The notes: a model not told the origin generated them from the sequence alone. DNA of 64,000 bases from Nanobdellota archaeon (GCA_030648155.1 JAUSIK010000013.1:65924-129923); one strand, 5' to 3'; positions 3,710-48,286 are shown, counted from the first letter of the stretch. A program made the numbers and translations.

Positions 3710-4315
3710 TTGAGGTGGAAAATGAGTGAAAAGGAGAAATTATTAGAAGAGATAAAAAAAGAGACTCTCCAGGCGGATTTGCCTTTGAAAGAGGGAGCGA
3801 CTAATCTTGTATTTGGAAAAGGAAAGGGTGATGTTGAAATTTTATTTATTGGAGAAGCGCCCGGAAGGAACGAGGATTTGCAGGGGGTGCCTTTTGTTGG
3901 TGCTGCTGGAAAGAATTTAGATAAATTACTTCATGAAGTTGGATTGAGTTTGGATGATGTTTACATTGCTAATATATTGAAGTATAGGCCTCCGGAAAAT
4001 AGGGGCCCATTACCTTCTGAAATTAAAGCACATACGCCCTATTTACTCAAGCAAATTAAAGCAATAAGGCCTAAAGTTATTTGTTCATTAGGAAATTATG
4101 CTACTAAGTTTTTCTTGGCTGGAACAGATGTTGATAAAATGAATGAACAGGAAGGAATTACTAAAATACATGGAAAACCAAGGGAGATTGAACTTGATGG
4201 AATGAAACTAAAATTAATTCCTTTGTTTCATCCTGCAGCGATAATTTATAATAGAAGTTTAATTGCGGAATGGGAAAAAGATTTAGAGATTGTTAAGAAA
4301 GAAATTGGGAAGTGA
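3710..4315 (+). CDS. uracil-DNA glycosylase, family 4
   Basis: Carries the family-4 UDG motifs GEAPGRNEDLQGVPFVGAAGKNLD and FHPAAIIYN, and is about 200 aa. Confidence 0.85.
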   Translation: MRWKMSEKEKLLEEIKKETLQADLPLKEGATNLVFGKGKGDVEILFIGEAPGRNEDLQGVPFVGAAGKNLDKLLHEVGLSLDDVYIANILKYRPPENRGPLPSEIKAHTPYLLKQIKAIRPKVICSLGNYATKFFLAGTDVDKMNEQEGITKIHGKPREIELDGMKLKLIPLFHPAAIIYNRSLIAEWEKDLEIVKKEIGK

Positions 4316-4320
4316 ATTTA

Positions 4321-4836
4321 CTATACTCCCAATATTTCTTCGCATTTATTTATAAAACTGTAAGCATCTTTCTTGATTTTCTCTGCAATTTCTTTTGATG
4401 TTTGTTTTGTTACACTATATTGTGCAATTTCTCTTTTATTTTTTGCATCAGCTAATTTTTCTAATTCTTCTTTTTGAAAATGTGCATTTTTTATTAACAT
4501 TAAATCTTTTTGATTTAATTGCTTCTTTTTAACAAAATATTCTTCCAGAATCATAAGGGTAGCGGCGTGATTTTTGCTTCTAAAACCAATACTTGCTATT
4601 AAAGAAAGGGCAGCAGTGTACAAAGCATAATATCCTGTAATAGCTACCCACTCATTGGAATTATAATCAGAAGGTATTTGAAGCAAGATTCTTGCTTTTT
4701 TATTATTTAAGTTGGAAAGAATGCCCATAGTTATAAGATTATTTTTTGCTTTGTCCAAATATTTTTTAGTTAAAGAAATTACAGTTTTGTCTTTTACAAT
4801 TTTGCCTTTCTTCAAATAAAATTCAATTTTTCTCAT
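4321..4836 (-). CDS. HEPN-domain protein, the partner of the upstream MNT
   Basis: All-helical and about 170 aa. It overlaps the 3' end of the nucleotidyltransferase gene by 14 bp, the classic MNT-HEPN operon order. Confidence 0.55.
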   Translation of the reverse strand: MRKIEFYLKKGKIVKDKTVISLTKKYLDKAKNNLITMGILSNLNNKKARILLQIPSDYNSNEWVAITGYYALYTAALSLIASIGFRSKNHAATLMILEEYFVKKKQLNQKDLMLIKNAHFQKEELEKLADAKNKREIAQYSVTKQTSKEIAEKIKKDAYSFINKCEEILGV

Positions 4837-5479
4837 CTTTATACATCCAATAGTAAAATGTATCTTCTCCCTTGAATACTATCCCATACATTTTTAAGTC
4901 ATTCCATAATTCAAGATTATCTTTTTTTATATTCGGAAATTCATCTGGAGATAATATGATTGGAGCAAACTCTAGATTATATTTATATTTGAGTGATTTA
5001 ACAAAATGTTCTATTTCTTTATTTTTAGTTGACACACAAATAATGTCAACATCGCTTTGGTTTGATTCTGTTCCCTTAGAATAGCTCCCGAATAATACGA
5101 CCATCCAAATATGGTGATTATTCATAATCTCTTTTATTGCATTATACACTATTTTATTTTTTTTCATAAAATCTATTTCTCTTTGCAGCATATAATGATC
5201 AAATCCTGTTTCTGAATATAAGTGATCCATGTCTAAAAAATATACAAGAGTTTTTCCTTTTTTATCTTCTTTCACAATTTTTTTATCAGCCATGGATTTT
5301 AAAGTAGAGTTAACCCTCTCATAAGAATAATAATTATCTAATCTTTCAATTATTTCCTTAATAGTCATATCTTTGCCTTCTGGGAAAAATGAACTTATTA
5401 CAGCCCCCTCTAGAAAAGATAATTCCATTTTCCCAAAGGACCCAAAGCCTATTTTCTGTTTTCTTTCTATTTTAGTCAT
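4823..5479 (-). CDS. minimal nucleotidyltransferase (MNT, pol-beta superfamily) with an N-terminal extension
   Basis: Carries the GS...D.D nucleotidyltransferase signature as MVVLFGSYSKGTESNQSDVDIICV. Confidence 0.7.
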   Translation of the reverse strand: MTKIERKQKIGFGSFGKMELSFLEGAVISSFFPEGKDMTIKEIIERLDNYYSYERVNSTLKSMADKKIVKEDKKGKTLVYFLDMDHLYSETGFDHYMLQREIDFMKKNKIVYNAIKEIMNNHHIWMVVLFGSYSKGTESNQSDVDIICVSTKNKEIEHFVKSLKYKYNLEFAPIILSPDEFPNIKKDNLELWNDLKMYGIVFKGEDTFYYWMYKDEKN

Positions 5480-17342: not shown

Positions 17343-17364
17343 TCTTAAATTCCCTAACAAGTAT

Positions 17365-17437
17365 AGCCCCTTAGTCTAGTGGTCTAGGATTTCAGGTTTT
17401 GGTCCTGAAGACCCAGGTTCGAATCCTGGAGGGGCTA
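17365..17437 (+). tRNA. tRNA-Gln (anticodon TTG)
   Basis: 73-nt cloverleaf. Acceptor stem is AGCCCCT/AGGGGCT, anticodon stem TCAGG/CCTGA with loop TTTTGGT, and T arm CCAGG-TTCGAAT-CCTGG. Confidence 0.8.
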
Positions 17438-17487
17438 TGAAACAAAAGGTTAGATAGCTTAATAAATAAATTATAACACATCTTGAC

Positions 17488-17997
17488 ATGAATGACCTGT
17501 TTGAAATTAAAAAATCTAAAATAGCTGGAAATGGGATTTTTGCCAGTAAAGAAATAAAAAAGGGACAAACTATTTACTTTCTAAGTGGAGAATTATGTAG
17601 TTTAGACGAAATAATAAAGAAGGTAAATAATGGAGTGGAAGAGCCCTCCGATCCCTTGGAAGTTGAAAATGAAGAATATTTGGATTTAGACGAAACATCA
17701 AGAACTTTTAATCATTTATGTAATCCTAATGCATTTATTCGCGGAAGAAATGAACTTGTTGCTTTGAAAAATATTACAATTGGAGAAGAAATAACTTTTG
17801 ATTATTCTACTACAATGAATGACAACGAAGAAAAAATAAAGGCGGCTGGAAGAACATTATGGACTTGCAAATGTAATTGCGGAGCAAAAAACTGCAGAGG
17901 AATAATAAACCAATTCAAAACCTTATCAAAAAAAAGACAAGAATTTTACATAAAAAACATGTATGTGCCTGATTTCATACTAAGAAAGTTTAAATAA
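17488..17997 (+). CDS. SET-domain protein-lysine methyltransferase with a post-SET cysteine cluster
   Basis: GNGIFASKEIKKGQ is the SET-N motif, NHLCNPNA matches NHSCxPN, ITFDYS matches ELxFDY, and CKCNCGAKNC matches post-SET CxCx4C. Confidence 0.8.
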   Translation: MNDLFEIKKSKIAGNGIFASKEIKKGQTIYFLSGELCSLDEIIKKVNNGVEEPSDPLEVENEEYLDLDETSRTFNHLCNPNAFIRGRNELVALKNITIGEEITFDYSTTMNDNEEKIKAAGRTLWTCKCNCGAKNCRGIINQFKTLSKKRQEFYIKNMYVPDFILRKFK

Positions 17998-18004
17998 AAA
18001 GCCT

Positions 18005-18062
18005 GATAAATAACTTTTAGTTATAAAGCTGGAGGGGTTATCCAACAAAAGATTCTATAGTC
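18005..18062 (+). repeat. att-like repeat A: conserved motif gataaataacttttagttataaag followed by a 32-bp copy of the tRNA-Gln 3' end plus trailer
   Basis: ctggaggggttatccaacaaaagattctatag at 18031-18062 matches 26 of 32 positions of ctggaggggctatgaaacaaaaggttagatag at 17425-17456, which spans the tRNA-Gln 3' end and its trailer. Confidence 0.6.
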
Positions 18063-18126
18063 TAAGTGTGCAAACATCACTTAGTTATTTGGAAAGGGTT
18101 AAAAATGATTAATCATATATCTTAAT

Positions 18127-18864
18127 GTGAAAATAAAAATTAATTTTCAAAAAGAAAAGATAGGATTATATCCTAAGAATAGAATTAAGAAAGTTTGGAA
18201 TAATCCTCAAATAGTTACGACCTCTGTAAAACCTACAATAGTAAAAGATGGAAATAAAAATGTTCTCCAATTAGGTTTTTCAAAAGGAAAGTTTGGAAAG
18301 GAAGATAAGGCAAGCTGGCATATAAATTTTAAAAAAAGTTATGAAGTTTTATATTGCCAGTATAAGGTAAAGTTTGAGAAAGGTTTTGACTGGAAATTGG
18401 GGGGAAAATTGCCTGGATTTGGTGGAGGAGACAAACCCGGAGGAGGAAAACAGTCTAAGGAGGGTTTTTCCTCAAGAGTTATGTGGCGCGAAAAAGGAAC
18501 AATGCATCAATATGTCTATTATCCAGAAAACAATGCTCATTACGGAAAAGGGTTCTGGTGGCATAATCTGTGCTCTAATAAAATTGAACAATTGAAATTC
18601 AAGCCTGGTAAATGGCACACTATAAAAATGAAAATCAAAATGAATAACAACTGGAAAGATCCGGGGCATATAATCTCATGGCTTGATGGAAAACTTGCCC
18701 TTTACCAATACATCGACCTAAGAGAAAAGAATACCAAAGAATATGGGGTTGAGTCATTTATTTTTACAGTATTCTTTGGTGGCGATGACAAAAGTTTTGC
18801 TCCAAGAAAAGATTGTAAGATTTATTTTGATGATTTTATAATTTCTGATAAAGATATTAAATAA
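18127..18864 (+). CDS. hypothetical protein, possibly a concanavalin-like polysaccharide lyase (PL14/PF14099-like)
   Basis: The GGKLPGFGGGDKPGGG motif is recalled from PF14099 lyases. Composition is beta-rich and W/Y-rich. This is a tentative call. Confidence 0.3.
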   Translation: MKIKINFQKEKIGLYPKNRIKKVWNNPQIVTTSVKPTIVKDGNKNVLQLGFSKGKFGKEDKASWHINFKKSYEVLYCQYKVKFEKGFDWKLGGKLPGFGGGDKPGGGKQSKEGFSSRVMWREKGTMHQYVYYPENNAHYGKGFWWHNLCSNKIEQLKFKPGKWHTIKMKIKMNNNWKDPGHIISWLDGKLALYQYIDLREKNTKEYGVESFIFTVFFGGDDKSFAPRKDCKIYFDDFIISDKDIK

Positions 18865-18908
18865 TACTTGGTTTATTTTTTTTCTGATAAATATATAAAA
18901 AATAGTCG

Positions 18909-18951
18909 GATAAATAACTTTTAGTTTAAAAGCTGAAGGGGCTATTCATTT
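18909..18951 (+). repeat. att-like repeat B: second copy of gataaataacttttagtt.aaaagctg.aggggctat, with a partial tRNA-Gln 3'-end copy
   Basis: About 38 of 44 positions match repeat A, and ctgaaggggctat matches the tRNA-Gln 3' end in 12 of 13 positions. Confidence 0.55.
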
Positions 18952-19451
18952 TAACAAGCATAGTTTTCAGATACAGTAGTTACTATGATTTGCTTATTAG
19001 TCTTTGGGATTGATACAAGGGTATATGGTTGGGTTAACGCTTGGGTTAGAAGACAATTTTCTCCAGGAGTCGACTCTTTTACTATGGCTTCAATATAAAA
19101 TAAATGATTGATCATTTTTTCAACTTTAATTGAGTAGCCCCCTGTAGGTTTTTCGCCTAGAAATAAGGCTATAATTGTTTCTTCTTGAAAGTTTGGAGAG
19201 GAGGGTAGTATTTGTTCTGGAAACATTTCGCCCCATAGTTTTGTCCAATCTGTTGTTGATTTTGCTATTCTGGTCTGTTTTTGAGATAGGCTGTTTTGTG
19301 TTCCTTCAAGAAGAACTTTAAAAGATAATTCTCCAGGTTTTTTTTCTGTTTCCTGCGGTGTTTTTACAATATCTAAATAAAAAACTGAAATAACAATTAT
19401 TATTCCAATTAAAACAAGGGACGAATGAAATAAAAGGGGTTTATTTACCAT
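18951..19451 (-). CDS. hypothetical secreted or membrane-anchored protein
   Basis: N-terminal TM or signal segment LLFHSSLVLIGIIIVISVFYL. Confidence 0.35.
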   Translation of the reverse strand: MVNKPLLFHSSLVLIGIIIVISVFYLDIVKTPQETEKKPGELSFKVLLEGTQNSLSQKQTRIAKSTTDWTKLWGEMFPEQILPSSPNFQEETIIALFLGEKPTGGYSIKVEKMINHLFYIEAIVKESTPGENCLLTQALTQPYTLVSIPKTNKQIIVTTVSENYAC

Positions 19452-32956: not shown

Positions 32957-33096
32957 AAAAGCCTCAAGAGGGATTTGAAATACAAACTTTTTAGAAAAAA
33001 GTTTCTATGAGTTCAAAAACTTAGAAGGCTATTGATTCTCAATAGTTGTCTAGCGCATGCACAATTCCTTAAGAATTGATTGGAATTTTCAATTCC
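32957..33096 (-). mobile_element. 140-bp unit at tRNA-Thr: a 23-bp copy of the tRNA-Thr 3' end (32957-32979) plus a 117-bp hairpin-rich element
   Basis: aaaagcctcaagagggatttgaa occurs at 32957-32979 and again at 33097-33119, where it spans the tRNA 3' end plus 4 nt of trailer. The intervening sequence shares about 90 bp with 43853-43945. Confidence 0.6.
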
Positions 33097-33100
33097 AAAA

Positions 33101-33190
33101 AGCCTCAAGAGGGATTTGAACCCCCGACCCTTAGTTCGTTTGGATTTCTTCTCATACAAAACTAATGCTCTACCACTGAGCTATTGAGGC
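33101..33190 (-). tRNA. tRNA-Thr (anticodon TGT) with an 18-nt intron after position 37
   Basis: Acceptor stem is GCCTCAA/TTGAGGC, D arm GCTC-AGTGGTA-GAGC, and anticodon stem TTAGT/ACTAA enclosing a 25-nt loop. That loop is the 7-nt loop TTTGTA.A plus the intron TGAGAAGAAATCCAAACG. Confidence 0.8.
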
Positions 33191-35972: not shown

Positions 35973-37828
35973 TTTTTGAAAAAAAAGGGCAGATGACTAT
36001 ATTTGTTATTATGGCTATAGTATTGGCTGCAGGAATTATAACCTATTTTGTCGTTCGTGGAAACTTGGGAAATAATAATGTTCCTAGCGAACTAGAGCCT
36101 GTTTTTAATTATTATAAAGAATGCATAAGGCAGGAAACTAGAAATGGGGCAAGTTTGGCTGGAAGCCAGGGGGGATATATTGATGTCCCAGCTTACAAAC
36201 CTGGAACTGAATTTGCTCCTTTTTCATCTGAATTAAACTTTTTGGGTTTTCCAGTTCCTTATTGGTATTATGTATCTGGGAATGGACTAATAAAAGAGCA
36301 AATGCCGAGTAAAGCAGATATTTCTATTGAAATTGGAGAGTATGTTGGAGAGGAATTAGAAAGATGCGACTTTACTCCTTTTATTGCACAGGGATATAGC
36401 ATTGAGGTTGACGAGGCTGATGTTAAAGTGGATATTGAAAATACAAAATTGAGGGCAAGAGTGATTTCTGAAATGACCGTCTCAAAAGGAGAGGCATATG
36501 CTAGAATTAGCGAGCATAATATTGAAATAAATAGTAAACTAGGAAAATTTTATGATATTGCAAGAAAAATTTATGAAAAACAAAGAGCCGATGCAGTTTT
36601 TGAAACTTATGCAATAGATGTTTTAAGATTATACACTCCTGTAGATGGGGTTGAAATAAGCTGTTCTGGAAAAGTTTGGAAAACAAATGATGTGATACAA
36701 GAATTAAAATCAGGACTTGAAGCGAATATTGGTGCTTTGAAATTTAAGGGCGACTATTATAATCTTATTAACAAAAAAGGAGAATATTATGTAATTGATG
36801 CAGGTGAAGATATAGATGAGAATATTAACTTGATATATTCTAGAGAAATGCCTTCTAAAGTAGAAATAGTTGGAGAGGGAGTCGATGATGATTTAATGAT
36901 AGCTTCACCAGTAGGAATACAAGAGGGATTAGGCATCCTTGGATTTTGTTATGCTCCTTATCATTTTGTTTATGATGCCAGTTTTCCAATTATGGTGCAG
37001 ATATATAATAATGAAGAAATATTCCAGTTTCCTGTAGTGGTTATTATTGATAATAATGTTGCAAGAGAGGGAGTATTTTCAGAATTGGAGCAGGATAGTG
37101 AGGAGTTTGATTTGTGCGAGTTTATGAACCAGGATATTGAAGTAAATATTTATGATGTGAATTTAGAAAGAGCAAATGCTAATATTTCTTACCAATGCTT
37201 TAATCAGCGATGCAGACTCGGAGAAAGTAAAGATGGAAACTTTGCAGGAAAGGCTCCATCATGTTTAAATGGAGAGATTTTACTAAGGGCAGATGGATTT
37301 AGTGATAAGAGTGAAGAGTTTTCAACAAATAAAGAAAAAAATATTGATATTATACTTGAAAGGGAGTATAATGTTAAACTTGACTTAAATGTTGGAGGGA
37401 AAAAACTTGATGGAACTGCAATAATTTCCTTTACTGATTCAAATGGAGAAAGCAAAAGTACGTTATTGCCTGATTCTCCAGAGATTAAATTGAGCGAGGG
37501 CGAATACGAGATAAAAATTTATGTTTATGGAAATTCAAGCATAACTATTCCTTCAAGCAAACGAACACAATGCCAAGATGTTCCTCGATCTGGAATAATG
37601 GGCTTTTTTGGAGGGACCAAAGAACAATGCTTCGATATATCAATACCTGAAACTAAAATAGAATATGCATTAAGGGGAGGGGGCACGTCTAAGGAATATA
37701 TCCTTGCTGATTATTTAGAAACTGGAAATATTGAGATAAATGTTGATGAACTTCCTTTACCTAAATCATTAGAAGAATTACAATATAATTACGCTTCCTT
37801 TGAAGGGATGAGGGTGACAATTATATGA
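35969..37828 (+). CDS. large secreted protein with a class-III (archaeal type IV pilin-like) signal peptide
   Basis: The N-terminus MIFEKKGQ-MTIFVIMAIVLAAGIITYFVV shows the KGQ cleavage motif followed by a hydrophobic helix. It is translationally coupled to the downstream giant gene (ATGA). Confidence 0.5.
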   Translation: MIFEKKGQMTIFVIMAIVLAAGIITYFVVRGNLGNNNVPSELEPVFNYYKECIRQETRNGASLAGSQGGYIDVPAYKPGTEFAPFSSELNFLGFPVPYWYYVSGNGLIKEQMPSKADISIEIGEYVGEELERCDFTPFIAQGYSIEVDEADVKVDIENTKLRARVISEMTVSKGEAYARISEHNIEINSKLGKFYDIARKIYEKQRADAVFETYAIDVLRLYTPVDGVEISCSGKVWKTNDVIQELKSGLEANIGALKFKGDYYNLINKKGEYYVIDAGEDIDENINLIYSREMPSKVEIVGEGVDDDLMIASPVGIQEGLGILGFCYAPYHFVYDASFPIMVQIYNNEEIFQFPVVVIIDNNVAREGVFSELEQDSEEFDLCEFMNQDIEVNIYDVNLERANANISYQCFNQRCRLGESKDGNFAGKAPSCLNGEILLRADGFSDKSEEFSTNKEKNIDIILEREYNVKLDLNVGGKKLDGTAIISFTDSNGESKSTLLPDSPEIKLSEGEYEIKIYVYGNSSITIPSSKRTQCQDVPRSGIMGFFGGTKEQCFDISIPETKIEYALRGGGTSKEYILADYLETGNIEINVDELPLPKSLEELQYNYASFEGMRVTII

Positions 37829-40800
37829 GAAAAGAAATATTACTAGGGATTGTAATTTTGTTTGTTTTAGTGGTTGGAGTAGAAGCTCAAGTAGGGGGGA
37901 GTTTTTCACAATCAGTCACATATCAACATAGGGCAAGCTATCAGGCAATTTATGGGCCTGAAGATAGACTAAATACATACTGGCCTATACTGGGGGATAA
38001 AGAAACTTGCCAGGCAAGACAGGACTTTATACTACAAATTTCTCCTGCTGGATGCCAGCCTGCTGTAGTGAGGTCTGATCTATTAGCTGAACAAAATGTT
38101 CCTGTATTTTGCCAGATAGATGCATTACAAATAAACCCTTTAATTGATGTTGATAAAATTAGAAGCCTTAGATTTACTGGGAAATATCCACAAGAGATTT
38201 TAGGCGCAGGATTTCATCCTGCTAGAGCTGCATTAAGAACTAGGGACAAATTACTAGGAAGTCCATTAATAAATAATATAGGGTATGTCGTGGTAGTTTT
38301 GAAGAAAAACCCTGTTGAAAAAAATGTTCCTGACTTTGTTAATGTAACTTTATCTGCTCAAATTGATTACGAGGCAGGAAACGCTTTTGGTATTGGGAAG
38401 GCAGAATTTATTTTAGAACCAGTTAGTGATTATGAATGGGAAACGCAAAAATTCAAACAGAGTTTTTGGAATGGAAGATATTTTGTTAGACTAGAACAAG
38501 TTGATCCTAATTTTGTTGTTGTTTCTTTATTTAGCGGTGAACGAAAAATATCTACAACTAGAGTTGGAAGAGGCGAAACTAGCAGTTCTATTTGGGTTCC
38601 TGGAGTTTATTGCAGGGCTGGAGTTAAAGTCACTTATGATGGATTGGTTGCTGCCGAAAATAAGGCAACGATTTCAATAAGTGATGATAAAGGAACCGAT
38701 ATTTTAGATGTTTATGATGGAAGCAGATTTTTAAATGATAAGTGTAGTGTAGATAAAATTGAAATATATGATGAAAAAAGTAGTTCTACTGTTAAGGCAG
38801 GAAATGTAAGCATTAGATGCAGTGACGGACAGAGATTAGAGCTTAAATTAGGAGATGTTTTGAAAGAAGATAAATGGCATTTATCTGAAAAATATGATCC
38901 TACTAAAAGAATAGATGTATTTTTAGATTTAGGAAAGAAAATAAAAAGCGGAATTTATTTCAAAGATGCTAAAGTTTATTTGGAATATATTGAAAATGAT
39001 GTTAATTTTGATGGGCCTTTATTTGTACTTGAAATAGGAGAGGTAAGAAATAATGTGGTTTATATGGATGCGATAAAGTTTGGGGATGCAATTAAAGATG
39101 TTAATTTGAATGTTATTAATGAGGTTAAAAATTCTTTCGAATTGTTAGATGGGGCTAAGATTGTAAATGAGGAGTTGAAATTGGATGCCTATAATATTAA
39201 CAGCAATATTGATGAGTTAAATTTAGGCGATGAAAATGAGAATAAGCTTAGAGAGGCTATTTCTGCTTTTAGAAATGTAAGCGATCAATATCCTGCCGAG
39301 AGAGACAGCAATTCTAAAGATGGAGAAAGCTGGGGAGAAAGGGCACTTAAGAAGGCGATTGATTTAGCTTCATTGGCTGGAAAGGAAAAGATAAGGGCAG
39401 ATTTAATTAAAGAATTTGTTGATAGGTATCCTGATTCAAATTTTGCTGATAGTTATAGATATGAATATAATCAGATAGTCAGCACTGATTTTTCAAGAGC
39501 AGGTGGGGTAATAAATATAGACCAGCGGTTTTACAATGTTAGATTGGTTGATTTGGAAATACCAAGAAAACAATCTAGTGCTGATTTTGCTTTGACTGGC
39601 GTGGAATCTGGAAATGTTAAAGTAAATTTAAATGAACTAAAAAATATTATAGATAGAGGGGTAGGGTCGATTGATAGCATAAGATTAGATAAAATACATG
39701 ATGAAGAAAATGTTAAGGCTAGTATAAATTGCAGAGTTGAAAAGAGCGGGGGAGGTTATGGTTTGAAGTCAGAATCTTATAATTTGAAATTAAATGATGA
39801 GGCTACTAAGGTTTGCGATAAGGCATTCATTAAATTGAGAGATACACATATTGAACAGATTGCAAAAGTAAGATTAATACCTGAAGCACAAGGGACTAGA
39901 ACAGAGACAAATTTAACCGTAAATATTGGAATTGAAAAGAGAGCTATAAAATTATCACCTGATAAAACTAGCGAGATGATTGAAAATCTTAATGAAAGTA
40001 TTAAAAAGTGGGAGAATATAAATGAAAAATTAGGAAAGGTTGTAAGTGGATTGAAGGGTGCTTGTTTCGCAACTGCAGGCGTATTGACTGTGAAGAATTT
40101 CATAAGCGGAATAGGTGGAGAGGCACTCGCAAGGCAAAAAGTGATGGTAGGATGGACAAAAGAGTGCAGTGATTTGGTTAATGCTAATCCGCCAAAATAT
40201 CCAACATTAAATGCTTGTTATTTAGCAAAGAGTGATGAGATTAATAAAGATGTAAGCTCTGCAAATGAAGCAATAAATCAGATTAATACTAGAATTGAAG
40301 GGATTGAAAGAAATTATGTTGAAAGCAGTTCTATAGGCGGAACGGATATCAATAGGGGGAAGGCGGCGGTTGCTTACTGCAACGATTTAAAGACGAGATA
40401 TGGAACAAGAGATGTTAAAATTAAAGAAGGGGCTAATGAAAGAACTCTAAAATTTAGTGAAGTATTAGGAGATTGTGAACAAGGATATAATAATCAGGGG
40501 CTTTATGGATACAATGAGTTGAGAGAGATAGAATATAATTTGATAATGAAAGATAGGGCTTCTTCAGTTAATGTTAAAGATAGTTCAAATAGATTATTAC
40601 AAGGAAGTTATGACCAGATTTATGAAAATAGACATCGTTATGAGGAAGTTGAGAAGGCTAAAGCGACAAAGACTCTAGGATTACCTTCTGTTCCGATTGC
40701 ACCTACTAGTAGTATTAGAAAGAATGTTGTTGGAGAGGTTGTGAGTGTGGGAGGAGTTTCTTCTGATGTTAAAATTGATAAATTAGATAAGGAAAAAAAT

Positions 40801-43791
40801 ACTCATCTGGCAAGCATGAGCACTTATAATACAGAGGGATTTACTGTTAATGGTATTAAGAGAAAAGGTTTCAAGGGAGGAGATATTTACTTATTGGGAC
40901 TGAACAAAGATACAGAGGGATATTCTGTTCAGGAAGTTTATAGGAAGACTGGAGATAATAAATATGAAATATTAGATAGTAGTGAGAGGGGAGATTTCTT
41001 AGATATATATGGAATTGGCAGAATAACTCCAGCAGATAGTGTAAGTTATGCAAATTCATACGAAAACCCTGAAGTAAGATATTATGAAACTGAACCATAC
41101 AAGGGAATGCCTGCGATTGTACCTTTTGATGTTAGAGATGGGTGGTATGCTGCGACAAGACAGACTTTACCTGCATTTGGAGGAATAGGAGCATTTGATT
41201 CTAGCGGAAGAGTTACTAGTTTTTACTTATGCAATGTTGGACCTAATCATAAAGAGCAATTCTTTGAGGGATATGGGGATGATATTTGCCAATTAATTAA
41301 TTTGAATACAGGACAGCCTTATGGATTCTTCCCAGGGTTGAGTGAGACTGAAGCAAAAAGAAGAGTTGGACAGGCAGTTGGTGCAATTGAAGATGCTGCA
41401 AATCAATATGGCAGGAAACTTGCAAGAGTTGCTGGAAAGGATTTTGCGGTTGGAAGGCCTGCTGCAAACATTCCTTCAACTCAATGCCAGAACTTTATGT
41501 CTCCTGAAGAATGCCATTTAATGTTTAATGTTTGTGATCCTGTTATTTGTCCTTCATCTAGATGTGATTTTGGAGGGCAATATCCTGTAGCAGACGTTGT
41601 ACAGACTGGAATAATTGGATCAACATTATTATGTCTTCCTAATATTAGAGAAAAAATTATTATTCCTGTTTGCTTGACAGGAATACATGCTGGAATTGAT
41701 GGGTTTGTAAGTATTCTAAAAAATCATAGAGATTGCTTGCAAGAAAGTTTAGAAACTGGGAGAACAATTGGAATTTGCGACCAGATTTATTCAATATATT
41801 TATGTGAATTTTTCTGGCGACAGATTTCTCCTGTTGCCAAAGTAATTTTACCAAAGATAGTTGAACTTGCTTATGGGCAGGGAACACGAGGTGGTGGAGA
41901 ATATCTTACTGTAAGTGCAGCTTGGCAGAATACACAAGACTCTGTAAATTATTTCACTCAAAGCTATGCTGCGAATTCTATTAAAGCATTCCAGGCAAGA
42001 AGTATAGAAGAGGCAGGGGCTCCATTCTGTAAGGCATTTGTTTCTGCAAAGGCACCTACTTCGTTTGAGAGTTTAATTGAACCTGACAGTCCTCCACAAT
42101 TCCATGCATGGTTTAGTGCTACTAGATTTACAGATGCAACTGTTCCTGCTACTTCACAGTATAAAGTATTTTATCATATATTTTCTGGAAAGGATCAGGG
42201 TGTGCATTATAGTGTATATATGAAGAATCCCCCTACATCCAGCTACTATAGTTTGCCTGCCATTGTACATGTTGCTTCTGGATTTGTTGGAAGAGGGCAG
42301 TATGCAACCGAAAGTAAAGACTTTACTGCTCCAGAAGGATATAAAGAATTATGTGTAAGAGTAAATGATAAGGAAGAATGTGGATTTAAAGAAGTATCAA
42401 CAAGCTTTGCAATTAATTCTCTAAGAGATAGTTATGTAGCTGACCAGGCAAAAGAATCAGAAATAAAAACTGAAGGGGAATGCATAAGTGGAAGCACAAG
42501 TTTAAAGGCAACTGTATTAAGTCCTAATATTGGGGCAAATGCAGAAGAGGCAGGTTTGCCACAAATTTATAATAGGGGAATTGTTAGAATTTGTTCAAGC
42601 AAAAACCCTGGAAGCGCGACTGATCCTAGTAGATTTGCTGATAAGGGATTTTGCGGTGATCCAAAATTAAGATGCTGGCTTGATAAAAATAGTGTGGCTA
42701 ATGCAATAACCGATAACAATGCAGGAGTTAGAGACGCGACATTATCGGAAATTGAGAAAACTCAAAGAGAAGATTTAGCTAATAAGGGAATAATTGTTGG
42801 AGATGATGTTGCAGTAGAAGAAATTAAGCAAATAAGAGATTCTATAAATATGTTAAGGACAAAGGCAGAAGTAAGCGACCAGGAAGTAACAGAAACAACA
42901 ATTCGACTAGATTCTTTATTTGATAGAGTGGTGCTTAATCATCATAAGGCGCAAATACTTTATTTAATTGGAGACAGCAAAGCAGTGCAGGTTGAAAAAA
43001 TTATTGCAAAAATAAGAAACCAGGAGAGCAGGAAATCAGAAGTTGTGAAGGGAACAGAGGTTCCGACTCCAACTGAAACTCCAAAGGCAACTGCTACTGT
43101 GACACCAAAGTCAACTCTATCTCCAGAGGCGACTCCGCAAGTTACAAATAATCCTGTTAAATTAACTCTTGGGCAGGATTATAACAGCAAGATTAAAATT
43201 TATTTGTATAAAGATGGAAAGATTACAGATATTTATTTTTTGAATTCAGAGATATTTATTGAAGATTTTGCACTTTGGATTGATAGAAGAATTGGAAAAG
43301 TGAATAAAAATAAAATAGAGGTATTTTCTTATAATATTGATGATACTAATACTGCATTAGGGGGAGAGTATGATGAATTTTTTGACGGGTATTTTGTTGA
43401 GGGAAGAAATATAATAAAAATAGAAGGTACAAAAGAGGTTATTGATGCAGAAAGGAGTGAGGGAGATTATCAATACATATTAAGCAATGAGTATAACCCT
43501 GAAAATACGATTAGCATCATAGAAAAAAGTTCTACTGCGGATAGAATAATATTGATTATTGAGAAAGGAAAAATTTATACTCCTCAATTAAAGATATTGA
43601 TCGGAAATGTTCGACCAATTGAGGAAGGATTATTTGAAATTCAACTAATTAGTGAAGCTAATAGTGTGAACGGATTACAAGCTTATTTAGATAGCAAAGG
43701 ATTATTTATTCCTGAAAGTAAAGTCCTCATTTATTACAATTTAAATAATGCGATTATCGAGGGAAAAGAAATAATTATATCTTTAACTTGA
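37825..43791 (+). CDS. giant (1988 aa) secreted surface protein or adhesin, with a Cys-rich central module and a C-terminal T/P-rich linker
   Basis: Sec-type signal MRKEILLGIVILFVLVVGVEA. A Cys cluster lies around residues 1290-1420, and the linker reads PTPTETPKATATVTPKSTLSPEATPQ. No enzymatic motif is recognisable. Confidence 0.6.
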   Translation: MRKEILLGIVILFVLVVGVEAQVGGSFSQSVTYQHRASYQAIYGPEDRLNTYWPILGDKETCQARQDFILQISPAGCQPAVVRSDLLAEQNVPVFCQIDALQINPLIDVDKIRSLRFTGKYPQEILGAGFHPARAALRTRDKLLGSPLINNIGYVVVVLKKNPVEKNVPDFVNVTLSAQIDYEAGNAFGIGKAEFILEPVSDYEWETQKFKQSFWNGRYFVRLEQVDPNFVVVSLFSGERKISTTRVGRGETSSSIWVPGVYCRAGVKVTYDGLVAAENKATISISDDKGTDILDVYDGSRFLNDKCSVDKIEIYDEKSSSTVKAGNVSIRCSDGQRLELKLGDVLKEDKWHLSEKYDPTKRIDVFLDLGKKIKSGIYFKDAKVYLEYIENDVNFDGPLFVLEIGEVRNNVVYMDAIKFGDAIKDVNLNVINEVKNSFELLDGAKIVNEELKLDAYNINSNIDELNLGDENENKLREAISAFRNVSDQYPAERDSNSKDGESWGERALKKAIDLASLAGKEKIRADLIKEFVDRYPDSNFADSYRYEYNQIVSTDFSRAGGVINIDQRFYNVRLVDLEIPRKQSSADFALTGVESGNVKVNLNELKNIIDRGVGSIDSIRLDKIHDEENVKASINCRVEKSGGGYGLKSESYNLKLNDEATKVCDKAFIKLRDTHIEQIAKVRLIPEAQGTRTETNLTVNIGIEKRAIKLSPDKTSEMIENLNESIKKWENINEKLGKVVSGLKGACFATAGVLTVKNFISGIGGEALARQKVMVGWTKECSDLVNANPPKYPTLNACYLAKSDEINKDVSSANEAINQINTRIEGIERNYVESSSIGGTDINRGKAAVAYCNDLKTRYGTRDVKIKEGANERTLKFSEVLGDCEQGYNNQGLYGYNELREIEYNLIMKDRASSVNVKDSSNRLLQGSYDQIYENRHRYEEVEKAKATKTLGLPSVPIAPTSSIRKNVVGEVVSVGGVSSDVKIDKLDKEKNTHLASMSTYNTEGFTVNGIKRKGFKGGDIYLLGLNKDTEGYSVQEVYRKTGDNKYEILDSSERGDFLDIYGIGRITPADSVSYANSYENPEVRYYETEPYKGMPAIVPFDVRDGWYAATRQTLPAFGGIGAFDSSGRVTSFYLCNVGPNHKEQFFEGYGDDICQLINLNTGQPYGFFPGLSETEAKRRVGQAVGAIEDAANQYGRKLARVAGKDFAVGRPAANIPSTQCQNFMSPEECHLMFNVCDPVICPSSRCDFGGQYPVADVVQTGIIGSTLLCLPNIREKIIIPVCLTGIHAGIDGFVSILKNHRDCLQESLETGRTIGICDQIYSIYLCEFFWRQISPVAKVILPKIVELAYGQGTRGGGEYLTVSAAWQNTQDSVNYFTQSYAANSIKAFQARSIEEAGAPFCKAFVSAKAPTSFESLIEPDSPPQFHAWFSATRFTDATVPATSQYKVFYHIFSGKDQGVHYSVYMKNPPTSSYYSLPAIVHVASGFVGRGQYATESKDFTAPEGYKELCVRVNDKEECGFKEVSTSFAINSLRDSYVADQAKESEIKTEGECISGSTSLKATVLSPNIGANAEEAGLPQIYNRGIVRICSSKNPGSATDPSRFADKGFCGDPKLRCWLDKNSVANAITDNNAGVRDATLSEIEKTQREDLANKGIIVGDDVAVEEIKQIRDSINMLRTKAEVSDQEVTETTIRLDSLFDRVVLNHHKAQILYLIGDSKAVQVEKIIAKIRNQESRKSEVVKGTEVPTPTETPKATATVTPKSTLSPEATPQVTNNPVKLTLGQDYNSKIKIYLYKDGKITDIYFLNSEIFIEDFALWIDRRIGKVNKNKIEVFSYNIDDTNTALGGEYDEFFDGYFVEGRNIIKIEGTKEVIDAERSEGDYQYILSNEYNPENTISIIEKSSTADRIILIIEKGKIYTPQLKILIGNVRPIEEGLFEIQLISEANSVNGLQAYLDSKGLFIPESKVLIYYNLNNAIIEGKEIIISLT

Positions 43792-43829: not shown

Positions 43830-43970
43830 TGAAATGCGGGAAGAAGGATCCTGAAATACAAACTTTTTAGAAAAAAGTTTCTATGAGTTCAAAAACTTAG
43901 AAGGCTATTGATTCTCAATAGTTGTCTAGCGTATGCACATTCCTTCAGAATTGACATGATCTTTGATCAT
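43830..43970 (-). mobile_element. 140-bp unit at tRNA-Leu: a 20-bp copy of the tRNA-Leu 3' end (43830-43849) plus a 120-bp element homologous to 32980-33096
   Basis: tgaaatgcgggaagaaggat occurs at 43830-43849 and again at 43970-43989, where it spans the tRNA 3' end plus 5 nt of trailer. Positions 43853-43945 are about 95% identical to 32975-33068. Confidence 0.6.
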
Positions 43971-43974
43971 GAAA

Positions 43975-44058
43975 TGCGGGAAGAAGGATTCGAACCTTCG
44001 AAGGCACTAAGCCACTTGGTCCTAAGCCAAGTCCGTTTGACCGCTCCGGCATCCCCGC
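43975..44058 (-). tRNA. tRNA-Leu (anticodon TAG), long variable arm
   Basis: 84 nt. Acceptor stem is GCGGGGA/TTCCCGC, anticodon stem CTTGG/CCAAG with loop CTTAGGA, a 15-nt variable arm, and T arm GAAGG-TTCGAAT-CCTTC. Confidence 0.8.
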
Positions 44059-44368
44059 ATAAAATTAGGGAGATAAATAGAGTTTTAAAGATTTGGGTTA
44101 GAGATTTTAAAAATTCAAAGTACTGATATTATTCTTAAAAAGGATTTGTGGAAAAAAGAAATGATAGTCCATATGATGGCAAGAAGGTTGATTCAAGCTA
44201 TTTGATCGATAATAAAAGTAGAATTCTGGCATAATAGTGAAAAGTATAAATTATTGAATAGAAATAATAAAAAATATTATTCGAAACAAGTTAAATTCTG
44301 CAAAAATGAGCAGTTAAGTGCTCTTTGATAAATGTTCTTGACTTTTAGAGATAGGAATGTTTATAAAT

Positions 44369-45607: not shown

Positions 45608-46315
45608 ATGTTTGGAAAAAATAAATACGTAAACTTCGTTTCAGATAAAGATTTTTTGAAGTGTGTAGAGCATGTTTGTAAAGGATATGCTGAAGCTAGA
45701 GATAATTTATCCATAGAGGATTTAAAGAGTAATGGTCTAGATCCGTTTAAGACCTTATTTGACTTAATCAATAAAAGAATAAGTTTTGATACTTGGTTAA
45801 AAAATGAAGAAATGAGACAAGCTGATAAAACTCTGAATAATAGAATTGGAGAGTTTCATCAAAAATTACTTGGAAGTGTTAAGAATTGGGTAGATTTGGG
45901 AATTGGTGATGATTCTAAGGTAGACTTAATGAAAAAAGATAAATCTATATTTATAGAGTTAAAAAATAAATTTAATACAGTAAATTCAGATTCCTTAGAT
46001 AAAGTTAGGGATAAGTTGGAAAGAGCAGTAGCACAGAATAAAAAAGCCAAAGCATACTGGGCTTTCATTATATCAAAAGACAATTCATCAGGAGATAGAA
46101 TTTGGAATAAAAAAGGTAGAAAAACAAACGAAAGAATAAGAGTAATTTATGGTTCTAAAGTTTATGAGTTAATAACTGGAGATAAAGATGCTTTAAAGAA
46201 AACTTGGTTGGCTCTCCCAAGAGCAATAAATGATTATTTCAATGGGAAAGCGGTAATGATTCCTGAAGAGGATATGAAAAAGCTCGTAGGTTTGTTTGGA
46301 TCGGCTCTTCAATAA
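45608..46315 (+). CDS. putative type II restriction endonuclease, the convergent partner of the C5-methyltransferase
   Basis: The call rests on position only. Its 3' end overlaps the methyltransferase 3' end by 77 bp, and no nuclease motif was assigned with confidence. Confidence 0.3.
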   Translation: MFGKNKYVNFVSDKDFLKCVEHVCKGYAEARDNLSIEDLKSNGLDPFKTLFDLINKRISFDTWLKNEEMRQADKTLNNRIGEFHQKLLGSVKNWVDLGIGDDSKVDLMKKDKSIFIELKNKFNTVNSDSLDKVRDKLERAVAQNKKAKAYWAFIISKDNSSGDRIWNKKGRKTNERIRVIYGSKVYELITGDKDALKKTWLALPRAINDYFNGKAVMIPEEDMKKLVGLFGSALQ

Positions 46316-47306
46316 TTTTCTCGTTTGTATTTGATAAAGCTTTAATTATTTGTTTTCCAACTTCTTCTGCTAATTTTACTGGAACAGCGTTGCCTATTTG
46401 TTTATATTGAGAAGATACACTTCCAACAAATTCCCAGTTATCTGGAAAAGTCTGTATTCTTGCATATTCTCTAATTGTGAATGGCCTTGTTTCTTCTGGG
46501 TGACATCTCTCAGTTTGTTTTTGAGAAGGAGAGGTAGTTAACGTTAAACAAGGTTCATCCCAAGAGATACGTCTCGCCATTCCTCTTTTTCCCCCGCCAC
46601 TAAATAAGCTCTTACCCATAAACTCTTTTTGAATGCCTTTTGGTAAATTTACCCAACTTCCACCAGGAGGAACTAAATCCAATACTTTCTTTCTCTTTTC
46701 AGAATATTTAGTTCCTAGGGAAGAAGGAACTTCCTTAAGAGCATCTTTTAAAGTTGTTGTATTTTTGTGAGGGGTAGGATATTCAAAATTTATCTTATCT
46801 TTTGTTCCTATAATAATAATTCTTTTTCTTTTTTGCGGAACAGAATAATTAACTGCGTCTAGTATTTTGTATTTAACTTTATAACCTAAAGAGGTAAGAA
46901 CTTCAACCATTGTTTTCAAAGTTCTACCGCCGTCATGATTAGCTAATCCTGAAACATTTTCAGCCCAGAATATTTTAGGTTGTATTTCTTTTACGGCTCT
47001 TGCAAACTCAAAAAATAGAGTTCCTCTTATATCTTCAAAACCAAGTCTTTTACCGGCATGACTAAATGCCTGACAGGGAAAGCCCCCAGTTAAAACATCT
47101 GCTTCAATTCCTTTAAAGTCAACATCTTTTATGTCTTTATGTGTAATATTCCAGTTAGGCCTATTTTTTCTTAAAGTAGATACACAATCTTTATCAATTT
47201 CATTAAGAAAAACGTTTTTTAATCCAGCTTTTTCTAAACCCAGCGCTAATCCCCCAGCACCAGCAAATAGTTCTACAATAGTAAAATCGCCCTCTTTTTT
47301 TATCAT
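46239..47306 (-). CDS. DNA (cytosine-5)-methyltransferase
   Basis: Motif I is FAGAGGLALGL, motif IV GFPCQAFSHAG, motif VI ENV, and a QIGNAV motif is present. Confidence 0.85.
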   Translation of the reverse strand: MIKKEGDFTIVELFAGAGGLALGLEKAGLKNVFLNEIDKDCVSTLRKNRPNWNITHKDIKDVDFKGIEADVLTGGFPCQAFSHAGKRLGFEDIRGTLFFEFARAVKEIQPKIFWAENVSGLANHDGGRTLKTMVEVLTSLGYKVKYKILDAVNYSVPQKRKRIIIIGTKDKINFEYPTPHKNTTTLKDALKEVPSSLGTKYSEKRKKVLDLVPPGGSWVNLPKGIQKEFMGKSLFSGGGKRGMARRISWDEPCLTLTTSPSQKQTERCHPEETRPFTIREYARIQTFPDNWEFVGSVSSQYKQIGNAVPVKLAEEVGKQIIKALSNTNEKIIEEPIQTNLRAFSYPLQESLPLSH

Positions 47307-47407
47307 ACTTTAATCATGTATTCATAGTTTAAATATTTTTGGTCCAGAGGGTGTAACTTTGGAGAGGTTCAAGCTAGTATAGTTATTTTAAAAACATGTT
47401 CAATTTT

Positions 47408-48286
47408 CTAAAACCACTTCTTTAATGATTGGTTTTGGTATTTAGAGAGATTAGTCTCAAACTGCCAGAAGTTTATTTGTCCATTTGGATTTTTTGTATA
47501 TATTCCTTTTTGGGTATCAAAGGTTACTTCGAAGTTACTGCCTGAGAATTTTTCTTTCATATATCTTAACACCTCTATTCTCTCTTTTTGTTTATTTGAA
47601 AGTGTAGTATTCTGATTATCCAATCTTGTTTGATTTGTACTTAAGTTACATGTTGGGCAATCCAGACTATAAAATGCAGCAACACCGCTAAAAAAGTCAG
47701 CTATTTGACATAAAGGAAATTTCTTAGAATCTACTTGTTCTATCTCTGATACGGCAAAATCTTTTTTTATCTCAAAAATGTGACTTCCATCTTCTTTCTT
47801 CTTGATAAATATTTTTGATGAAATATTATCCAAAATCTTCTTTAATTCTTCCCAATTAATTACTCCCTGCTCATCTGGAAATATAACCCATTCTGCTTCC
47901 GAAGACCACCTTTTTGTAAATACATTTTTGAACAAGTGGAAATACATTTTTCCCAAGATAGTGTTATTGTCTTCTGGAATTTGTTCCTTTCTTTTATAGG
48001 AGTTCCAAATAACAACATCGATTCTTAGAGTTTTATCTTTTAGAAACTGAAAAACCAAGTCAATAATTTTTTTGGCGGCTAATCTTTCTCTTGCGCTTCC
48101 TAGTTTAGACCATTTAAATTCCTTAAGCCCAGATTCTGTTAAGAGTTTTGCCATTTTATTTTCGATTAAGCTAACAGCTTTCAGTTCCATAGATAGCATA
48201 CATATTGAGCTATATTCTCCTCCGTGATAATATGATTCATCAGAGTAAGCTACATGAGTATGATTTTTTTTATTCCTTTCTTCCAT
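47408..48286 (-). CDS. DUF3800-like protein
   Basis: VAYSDESYYHGGEYSS parallels the YIDESG start of DUF3800, and LCQIADFFSGVAAF parallels the QIADLIA motif. Confidence 0.4.
   Translation of the reverse strand: MEERNKKNHTHVAYSDESYYHGGEYSSICMLSMELKAVSLIENKMAKLLTESGLKEFKWSKLGSARERLAAKKIIDLVFQFLKDKTLRIDVVIWNSYKRKEQIPEDNNTILGKMYFHLFKNVFTKRWSSEAEWVIFPDEQGVINWEELKKILDNISSKIFIKKKEDGSHIFEIKKDFAVSEIEQVDSKKFPLCQIADFFSGVAAFYSLDCPTCNLSTNQTRLDNQNTTLSNKQKERIEVLRYMKEKFSGSNFEVTFDTQKGIYTKNPNGQINFWQFETNLSKYQNQSLKKWF

Follow-up and report, generated by a model that had tools for sequence, protein, structure and literature searches.

How two single genes came to be lined up behind a tRNA-Gln gene, each closed by a repeat of the tRNA 3' end, is the question raised by positions 17,365 to 18,951 of a 64,000-nucleotide stretch from a Nanobdellota archaeon (GCA_030648155.1, JAUSIK010000013.1:65924-129923), the whole of which is called the window here. 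The window has a G+C content of about 31% and codes for the archaeal ribosomal proteins S15, L44e and S3Ae, as well as SRP54, a Bud32/RIO-type kinase, Nre and RadA-like proteins; its source is a DPANN archaeon. DPANN archaea have very small genomes and are host-dependent, and how they acquire and swap accessory genes is poorly understood. The reading that we favor, with modest confidence, is that two small gene cassettes lacking an integrase were inserted serially at the 3' end of tRNA-Gln by site-specific recombination, with the recombinase supplied in trans. Literature searches turned up no account of arrays of this kind in DPANN archaea, and the array looks like a previously undescribed gene-cassette system.

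The docking gene is an intact tRNA-Gln(UUG) at 17365-17437 on the + strand (Rfam RF00005, 64.2 bits; ARAGORN tRNA-Gln(ttg), 17364-17438). Its 3' end, comprising the 3' strand of the T-stem, the 3' strand of the acceptor stem and A73, is proposed as the attachment site. The site 1 core, CTGGAGGGGCTAT (17426-17438, +), consists of the last 13 nt of the tRNA end with one trailer base counted in, and a recombination overlap, GGGGCTA, is proposed at 17431-17437 within it. The same 13 nt occur again at 18029-18041 and 18933-18945, with one mismatch each, and the similarity to the tRNA extends back into the T-loop (GTT..AA..CTG), where 17 of 22 positions match at both downstream sites. The first-pass annotation of this stretch had counted 26 matches in 32 positions between the tRNA end plus trailer and the second copy, which holds; it had put a third copy at 18934-18950, and this copy exists but lies at 18933-18945. 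The array has the intact tRNA at one end and, at the other, a repeat of part of the tRNA's 3' region, as in a tRNA-targeted integrative element.

Both downstream copies form the final 13 nt of a longer block of 47 nt, termed P-core. The block of cassette 1, TAAAAAGCCTGATAAATAACTTTTAGTTATAAAGCTGGAGGGGTTAT (17995-18041, +; nhmmer E = 4.5e-15), overlaps the stop codon of the preceding gene, and that of cassette 2, ending CTGAAGGGGCTAT (18899-18945, +; nhmmer E = 1.8e-12), is the right boundary of the array. The two blocks are identical at 39 of 47 positions, and about 6e-5 such pairs would be expected by chance in 64 kb. Within them GATAAATAACTTTTAGTT is exact at 18005-18022 and 18909-18926, with no further occurrence in the window even at three mismatches. 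The conserved motif annotated earlier before both copies is therefore real, although the shared block is longer than had been claimed.

One credible gene lies in each interval, as the first-pass annotation had stated. Cassette 1 holds a SET-domain methyltransferase of 169 aa (17488-17997, +; PF00856, E = 4e-12), and cassette 2 holds a polysaccharide lyase family 14-like (PL14) protein of 245 aa with locus tag Q7S27_04760 (18127-18864, +; Polysacc_lyase_14 PF21294, E = 7e-40). The left ends carry a short motif, P', which reads GAAACAAAAGGTTAGATAG in cassette 1 (17439-17457, +) and CCAACAAAAGATTCTATAG in cassette 2 (18042-18060, +), the latter also being found after the tRNA-Gln of another DPANN contig, L114. 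The 24 nt that follow the cores of site 1 and site 2 match at 17 positions in a fixed register (p = 2e-5). The P' of cassette 1 sits outside the stretch homologous to SET genes elsewhere, and AACAAAAGGTTA inside it is an inverted copy of the P box TAACTTTTAGTT at 10 of 12 positions, a score equalled by 10 of 500 shuffles. The overlap is bracketed by inverted TGGA/TCCA at the internal junctions, and the sequences tentatively suggest a longer inverted box, formed by TAACTTTTAGTT within the block together with a complementary copy within the left end. To the right of the array a convergent PrcB_C-domain gene (18951-19451, -) has its stop codon 5 nt beyond the array end and is presumed to be the original neighbor of the tRNA (the B' side).

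The order of the sites is B-core-P' (tRNA-core-P') at site 1, P-core-P' at site 2 and P-core-B' (the flank) at site 3, which fits the prediction of serial insertion at one site. The earlier description of a tRNA-Gln followed by two one-gene cassettes, each ending in a shared motif plus a copy of the tRNA 3' end, is confirmed.

We then considered P-core in other genomes. One pattern covering the tRNA end and both copies, scanned over 185,579 species-representative genomes, returned 56 intact DPANN tRNA-Gln genes, one partial copy (L018) and one further copy of the motif (L063, a Nanoarchaeia metagenome-assembled genome, MAG). A motif-specific scan of Joint Genome Institute (JGI) metagenomes gave six contigs representing five genomes, with L111 being the same contig as L063. 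In total, eight P-core copies are present in six genomes, two in the window and six in five other DPANN genomes, and an nhmmer profile of the block found no additional, more diverged P-cores in 140 loci. Over the eight copies the 47-nt block has a mean pairwise identity of 87%, whereas the 20-29 nt on either side are at 31-33%, the random level, and the right edge of the conserved block falls exactly after GGGGCTAT. The genomes that carry it are distant from one another, with Bud32, S15 and SRP54 proteins 43-59% identical and different tRNA-Gln sequences.

Linkage to tRNA-Gln was found in every contig that reaches far enough: a same-strand tRNA-Gln lies upstream of P-core in L110/L112, L111, L114 and L115. 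The first P-core is 0.6-1.3 kb downstream of the tRNA, and a second one in L115 is about 2 kb downstream. In L110/L112 the order is tRNA-Gln(CUG), LD-carboxypeptidase, block and tRNA-Glu, and in L114 it is S15, tRNA-Gln(UUG), a Zn-ribbon gene, block and Bud32. L111 has tRNA-Gln, a DUF3232 gene with a PIN remnant, a decayed tRNA-Gln 3' half, a RibD_C gene and then the block, while L115 has tRNA-Gln(CUG), a short insert, genes of 86 and 204 aa, block, a methyltransferase and a variant block. In L113, a contig too short to reach the tRNA, the block is followed by a P'-like sequence and a nucleotidyltransferase/winged helix-turn-helix (wHTH) gene. The intervening genes all differ between loci and are all co-oriented with the tRNA. 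Tandem P-cores, two each, are present in L115 (two to three cassettes) and in the window (two cassettes), so that these arrays show tandem, co-oriented cassettes, mostly of a single open reading frame (ORF), divided by a site, a layout in common with integrons and clusters of attC sites lacking an integrase (CALIN). The block overlaps the stop codon of the preceding gene in two cases, and in L111 it supplies the stop codon.

The resident tRNA ends read CGAGCAGGGCTAT in L110, TGCCCGGGGCTAT in L111, CGGGCGGGGCTAT in L114 and CGGGTGGGGCTAT in L115, while the blocks still read CTGGAGGGGCTAT or CTGAAGGGGCTAT. Block and resident tRNA in these four loci have only GGGGCTA(T) in common (GGGCTAT in L110). 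As the block is constant while the resident tRNA differs, it is a fixed element and not a local duplication, and duplication of the resident target is ruled out. The "copy of the tRNA 3' end" of the first-pass annotation is present, but it belongs to this fixed 47-nt element, which keeps CTGGAGGGGCTAT despite a different resident tRNA-Gln. Homology between site and target is just 7-8 bp, and 7-8 bp is the overlap length of tyrosine recombinases.

Considering these results, we propose a plausible model for the assembly of the array. A cassette comprises a short left end P', an accessory gene that seems to bring along the region upstream of it, and the 47-nt right-end P-core, the last bases of which mimic the acceptor 3' strand of tRNA-Gln. 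If cassettes are mobile, a circular cassette would bear the joined site P-core|P' and would recombine with the tRNA end across an overlap of about 7 bp, GGGGCTA, leaving the tRNA intact. After insertion P' would lie beside the tRNA and P-core beside the former tRNA neighbor, with older cassettes pushed outward. A second event at the same place would yield the observed order, in which case SET would have arrived after PL14. The recombinase would most likely be a tyrosine recombinase encoded elsewhere and acting in trans. The circle junctions expected from this model would be 18041|17439 (SET) and 18945|18042 (PL14), and the expected empty site would be CTGGAGGGGCTAT joined to TCATTTTAACAAGC.

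Several results weigh against this model. P-core is rare, being present in just one of the 185,579 species-representative genomes. No tyrosine-recombinase motif or Pfam match was found in the 64-kb window by a motif scan and by Pfam on 30 ORFs, in agreement with the earlier statement that the window has no integrase; the motif scan detected integrases in its control loci (L079, L085, L111 and L127), and no recombinase gene was found by it beside any P-core among the loci. Neither an empty site nor an excised circle nor a difference between strains came to light, and no gene with its P-core recurred as a cassette at a second location. P-core was absent from IMG/VR (two chance matches), the INPHARED phages and the PLSDB plasmids. 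Site 2 reads GGGGTTA rather than GGGGCTA, P' is recognizable in just three to four of the nine left ends, of which only two, window site 1 and L114, have a significant inverted P box. A contig break at site 2 counts in favor of the model, as the only hint of polymorphism or of an excised form: L001 (end 7444) and L002 (end 8550), Logan contigs from SRR13727527 that elsewhere match the window exactly, both stop on the 30-mer AAATAACTTTTAGTTATAAAGCTGGAGGGG in site 2 (18008-18037). Since both stop on one 30-mer, it has more than one context in SRR13727527, which indicates an assembly-graph branch at P-core; the contexts could, however, belong to other organisms in the sample, since L110, L111, L113 and L114 carry the identical 30-mer.

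Each cassette holds only SET or PL14, with no integrase of its own. The att-like sites and the lack of an integrase recall cis-mobilizable elements (CIMEs), which have functional att sites, no recombination genes and a tandem position at the site used by an integrase-bearing element; such a partner using P-core was not found, and the integrase at tRNA-Gln in L079 stands without P-core. Tandem islands and CIMEs are known at tRNA and tmRNA genes, such as the Dehalococcoides ssrA islands (PMC3146451) and the accretion of CIMEs as well as integrative and mobilizable elements (IMEs) within streptococci (PMC5704250). As in the present array, copies of small-RNA 3' ends separate elements accumulated at one site, and some of these elements rely on an integrase in trans. 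In contrast, they measure kilobases to tens of kilobases and have many genes, whereas the cassettes here span 0.6-1.3 kb and hold one gene or a small gene pair, and their right-end site is highly conserved across very distant genomes although the target tRNA differs.

Among the alternatives, the one ranked first, though we regard it as unlikely, is a transposon-type insertion with target-site duplication, in which non-autonomous elements with short terminal inverted repeats would be inserted by a casposase-like or other transposase through a long-stagger cut of the tRNA 3' end. Inverted copies of the P box at two left ends (10/12 and 11/12) are consistent with it, as are an element of about 101 nt after tRNA-Thr and tRNA-Leu in the window, each time ending in a 16-23-nt copy of its own tRNA 3' end, and a second 3'-end copy downstream of 19 of 56 tRNA-Gln genes in related genomes. 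Casposons, which are Cas1-dependent transposons, likewise target tRNA 3' ends, duplicate 14-15 bp and can be inserted in tandem, and terminal inverted repeats are a possible further point in common. However, a duplication must copy the resident target, and P-core in L110, L111, L114 and L115 differs from it outside 7-8 nt; most left ends show no significant inverted repeat, and no Cas1 or transposase was present among the ORFs scanned. Unlike casposons, the arrays repeat an end that is not a copy of the resident target, have no Cas1 or polymerase and are ten times smaller.

Also unlikely, and ranked after it, is that large elements (proviruses or plasmids) integrated in succession at tRNA-Gln and left the arrays as scars, each being deleted down to one gene and the right attachment site. 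Large elements integrated at tRNA-Gln have been described in archaea, among them PYG1 of Pyrococcus yayanosii, with 21.4 kb and 44-bp repeats (PMC9897764), and an integrase-bearing element stands at tRNA-Gln in this clade. In the latter, the Pacearchaeota MAG L079, the tRNA-Gln (5083-5176, - strand) is followed after 85 nt by a 405-aa tyrosine integrase (about 3781-4998) and then by wHTH and DNA-methylase-like genes, which from its gene content appears to be a classical integrated element, with a far end beyond the stretch analyzed. Elements of this kind have in common with the window the tRNA-Gln target and a partial tRNA copy at the far end as signature, but they differ in having their own integrase, many genes and a repeat that copies the resident tRNA. 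A shared attachment site should, moreover, mean shared neighbor genes, whereas the neighbor of P-core is different and unrelated in eight of eight cases. This neighbor is always co-oriented with the tRNA and has its stop codon at most about 80 nt before P-core, or overlapping it in the two cases mentioned, and no integrase fragments were found inside the arrays. The related possibility that P-core is the attachment site of a catalogued virus or plasmid was rejected, as nothing related was found in IMG/VR, INPHARED or PLSDB.

A second array in L111 (7815-8860) also bears on the use of this target. It consists of an intron-bearing tRNA-Gln(CUG), a 64-aa gene, vapB, vapC and a 43-nt repeat of the 3' half of the tRNA that lacks introns, with a vapBC insert of about 0.9 kb between the tRNA and the copy. 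An intron-less copy beside an intron-bearing tRNA means that the two are of different origin. A segment of 174 nt, comprising the vapC 3' end and the tRNA 3'-half copy, recurs with 92% identity in the first array of L111 (5559-5732). The integrase in L079 and the vapBC insert in L111 count in favor of the cassette model, since they show that elements of this clade do attach at tRNA-Gln. ARAGORN miscalls the intron-bearing tRNA-Gln(CUG) of L111 as tRNA-Pyl(cta).

It is improbable that P-core chiefly serves as a functional RNA or a regulatory signal (for example one for mRNA 3' ends, processing or termination that has a tRNA-like tail) kept by selection while ordinary rearrangement varies the genes around it. 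Strong conservation with a sharp edge at the tRNA-like end would suit such a signal, as would the constant position after a co-oriented gene, to which it can lend a stop codon (L111), and AGCC near the 5' edge of P-core could pair with GGCU of the tail. However, single-stranded DNA folds of both window sites, on both strands, were no better than those of shuffled sequences (z = +0.17 to -0.33, DNA energy parameters), and the candidate pairings are broken in some copies without compensatory change. No Rfam family covers P-core; a pseudo-tRNA or other known RNA was rejected, with Rfam matching only the true tRNA. A terminator or 3' untranslated region (UTR) motif was rejected as well, since the 64 kb contain just two copies and nothing resembling a terminator was found at them. 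The first-pass annotation had allowed that the repeats might be such a common motif unlinked to tRNA-Gln; instead they are linked to it wherever the flank suffices. A signal in RNA leaves the strict linkage to tRNA-Gln and the tandem layout unexplained.

A true integron-type CALIN, despite the short co-oriented ORFs separated by a repeated site, is very improbable, as attC sites are imperfect hairpins in single-stranded DNA (R''-L''/L'-R') with variable sequence, whereas the sites here are conserved in sequence, rejected as attC-type hairpins by the folds above, devoid of an R''/R' GTTRRRY pair and inserted at a tRNA end rather than at an attI beside intI. Integrons have been reported from archaea, in most cases lacking an IntI close by, in a survey that took in DPANN lineages (Ghaly et al., 2022; PMC9668308). 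These and other integrons resemble the present arrays in their tandem, co-oriented one-gene cassettes with the site mostly at the 3' end of the cassette, in varied accessory cargo and in arrays that often have no integrase nearby. They differ in their structured and variable attC, as opposed to a conserved linear 47-nt site, and in their attI next to intI, as opposed to entry at a tRNA 3' end without IntI and with cassettes that seem to bring their own upstream regions. Of the two origins offered in the first-pass annotation, the serial layout at a tRNA is therefore supported, but a strict integron is not, with no attC fold and no IntI-type gene.

For serial insertion of cassettes by site-specific recombination, the relatives of the cargo genes elsewhere are informative. 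SET orthologues with 60-82% identity are widespread in DPANN archaea, and neither tRNA-Gln nor the block was present in the contexts examined (L116, L117 and L119-L132). Homology of the window to these orthologues runs from the promoter region of SET, at about 17452, as far as the stop codon, which leaves P' and P-core outside the SET unit. PL14 orthologues with 75-82% identity lie in unrelated clusters (L133-L138), the closest (81% at the amino acid level, 83% in DNA) showing DNA homology confined to the ORF within an unrelated gene cluster. Thus, orthologues of both genes at 72-83% identity stand in unrelated contexts with homology limited to the gene unit, and P-core or tRNA-Gln was never beside them in the contexts examined. 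A conserved SET-PL14 pair at the closest PL14 orthologue (L138) was rejected, as the preceding 169-aa gene there encodes an unrelated membrane protein.

One SET homologue, P0009 (77% identical to the window SET; L126-L132), has three upstream contexts that diverge exactly at ATGTTAAAC, a sequence matching the integron core GTTRRRY. An inverted repeat, GAAGGCACGC / GCGTGCCTTC, lies on either side of the gene, and in L127 a 270-aa tyrosine recombinase and Hjc adjoin it. From these sequence features, P0009 may be the cargo of a genuine attC-type cassette.

A broader proposal, which we advance only tentatively and hold to be possible rather than probable, is that the arrays are a gene-capture platform of a small clade of DPANN archaea, in which the tRNA-Gln 3' end serves as attI, the conserved, unstructured 47-nt tRNA-mimic site as the attC of single-gene cassettes, and a trans-acting recombinase moves cassettes between genomes about 50% identical in core proteins. 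This platform may be one member of a broader class of small elements, hitherto undescribed, that insert at tRNA 3' ends in these archaea. If true, genes could flow between distant lineages by a compact route, and the platform would be a second, independent answer to the problem solved by integrons in bacteria. The cargo, namely a SET methyltransferase, a PL14-like protein, a cell-wall peptidase, toxin-antitoxin parts and methyltransferases, fits functions in host interaction and defense. The 47-nt site provides a concrete search handle, and the identity of the recombinase is the main prize.

Other duplications of tRNA 3' ends were observed in the window and in related genomes. In the window, tRNA-Thr (33101-33190; region 32960-33190, -) and tRNA-Leu (43974-44059; region 43830-44059, -) are each followed by their own short hairpin and then by the same hairpin-rich element of about 101 nt, 97% identical between the two (about 33077-32976 and 43952-43852). 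The element is followed by the copy of its own tRNA 3' end, 16-23 nt long, at 32979-32960 for tRNA-Thr and 43849-43830 for tRNA-Leu. A related element with a compensating hairpin change lies after tRNA-Glu in L110 (4580-4750). The element had no Rfam match and only chance matches in IMG/VR; it looks like a small tRNA 3'-end inserter with a target-specific repeat, or a structured scaffold with a 16-20-nt tRNA-matching tail.

In the 19 of 56 tRNA-Gln genes of other DPANN species noted above, a second and sometimes a third GGAGGGGCTA copy occurs 54-180 nt downstream (L014, L017, L019, L037, L038, L043, L049, L056, L057, L071, L078, L080, L083, L098-L101 and L104). The spacers before these copies have no coding sequence and show partial conservation from one species to another (GAACC-loop-GGTTCGACGAGC ... 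GAAGTTGGGAGCACT), with no Rfam match. The tRNA-Glu, tRNA-Thr and tRNA-Trp genes in these loci show the same duplication, and tRNA 3'-end duplication is thus general in these genomes. In the Nanoarchaeota MAG208, a tRNA-Gln 3' end without a body (L018, 5906-5927) and the complete tRNA-Gln of a different contig (L080, 111-132) share their 40-nt trailer, which is consistent with a single site being both occupied and empty within one MAG, or with the boundary of an element.

Two further regions of the window were recorded. At 37825-43791 (+), an ORF of 1988 aa follows one of 619 aa, with no Pfam match, and ends just before the element associated with tRNA-Leu; the two ORFs probably encode large surface proteins. 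At 46239-48286 (-), a C-5 cytosine DNA methyltransferase (PF00145) adjoins a DUF3800 protein, and this region may be a restriction-modification or defense island.

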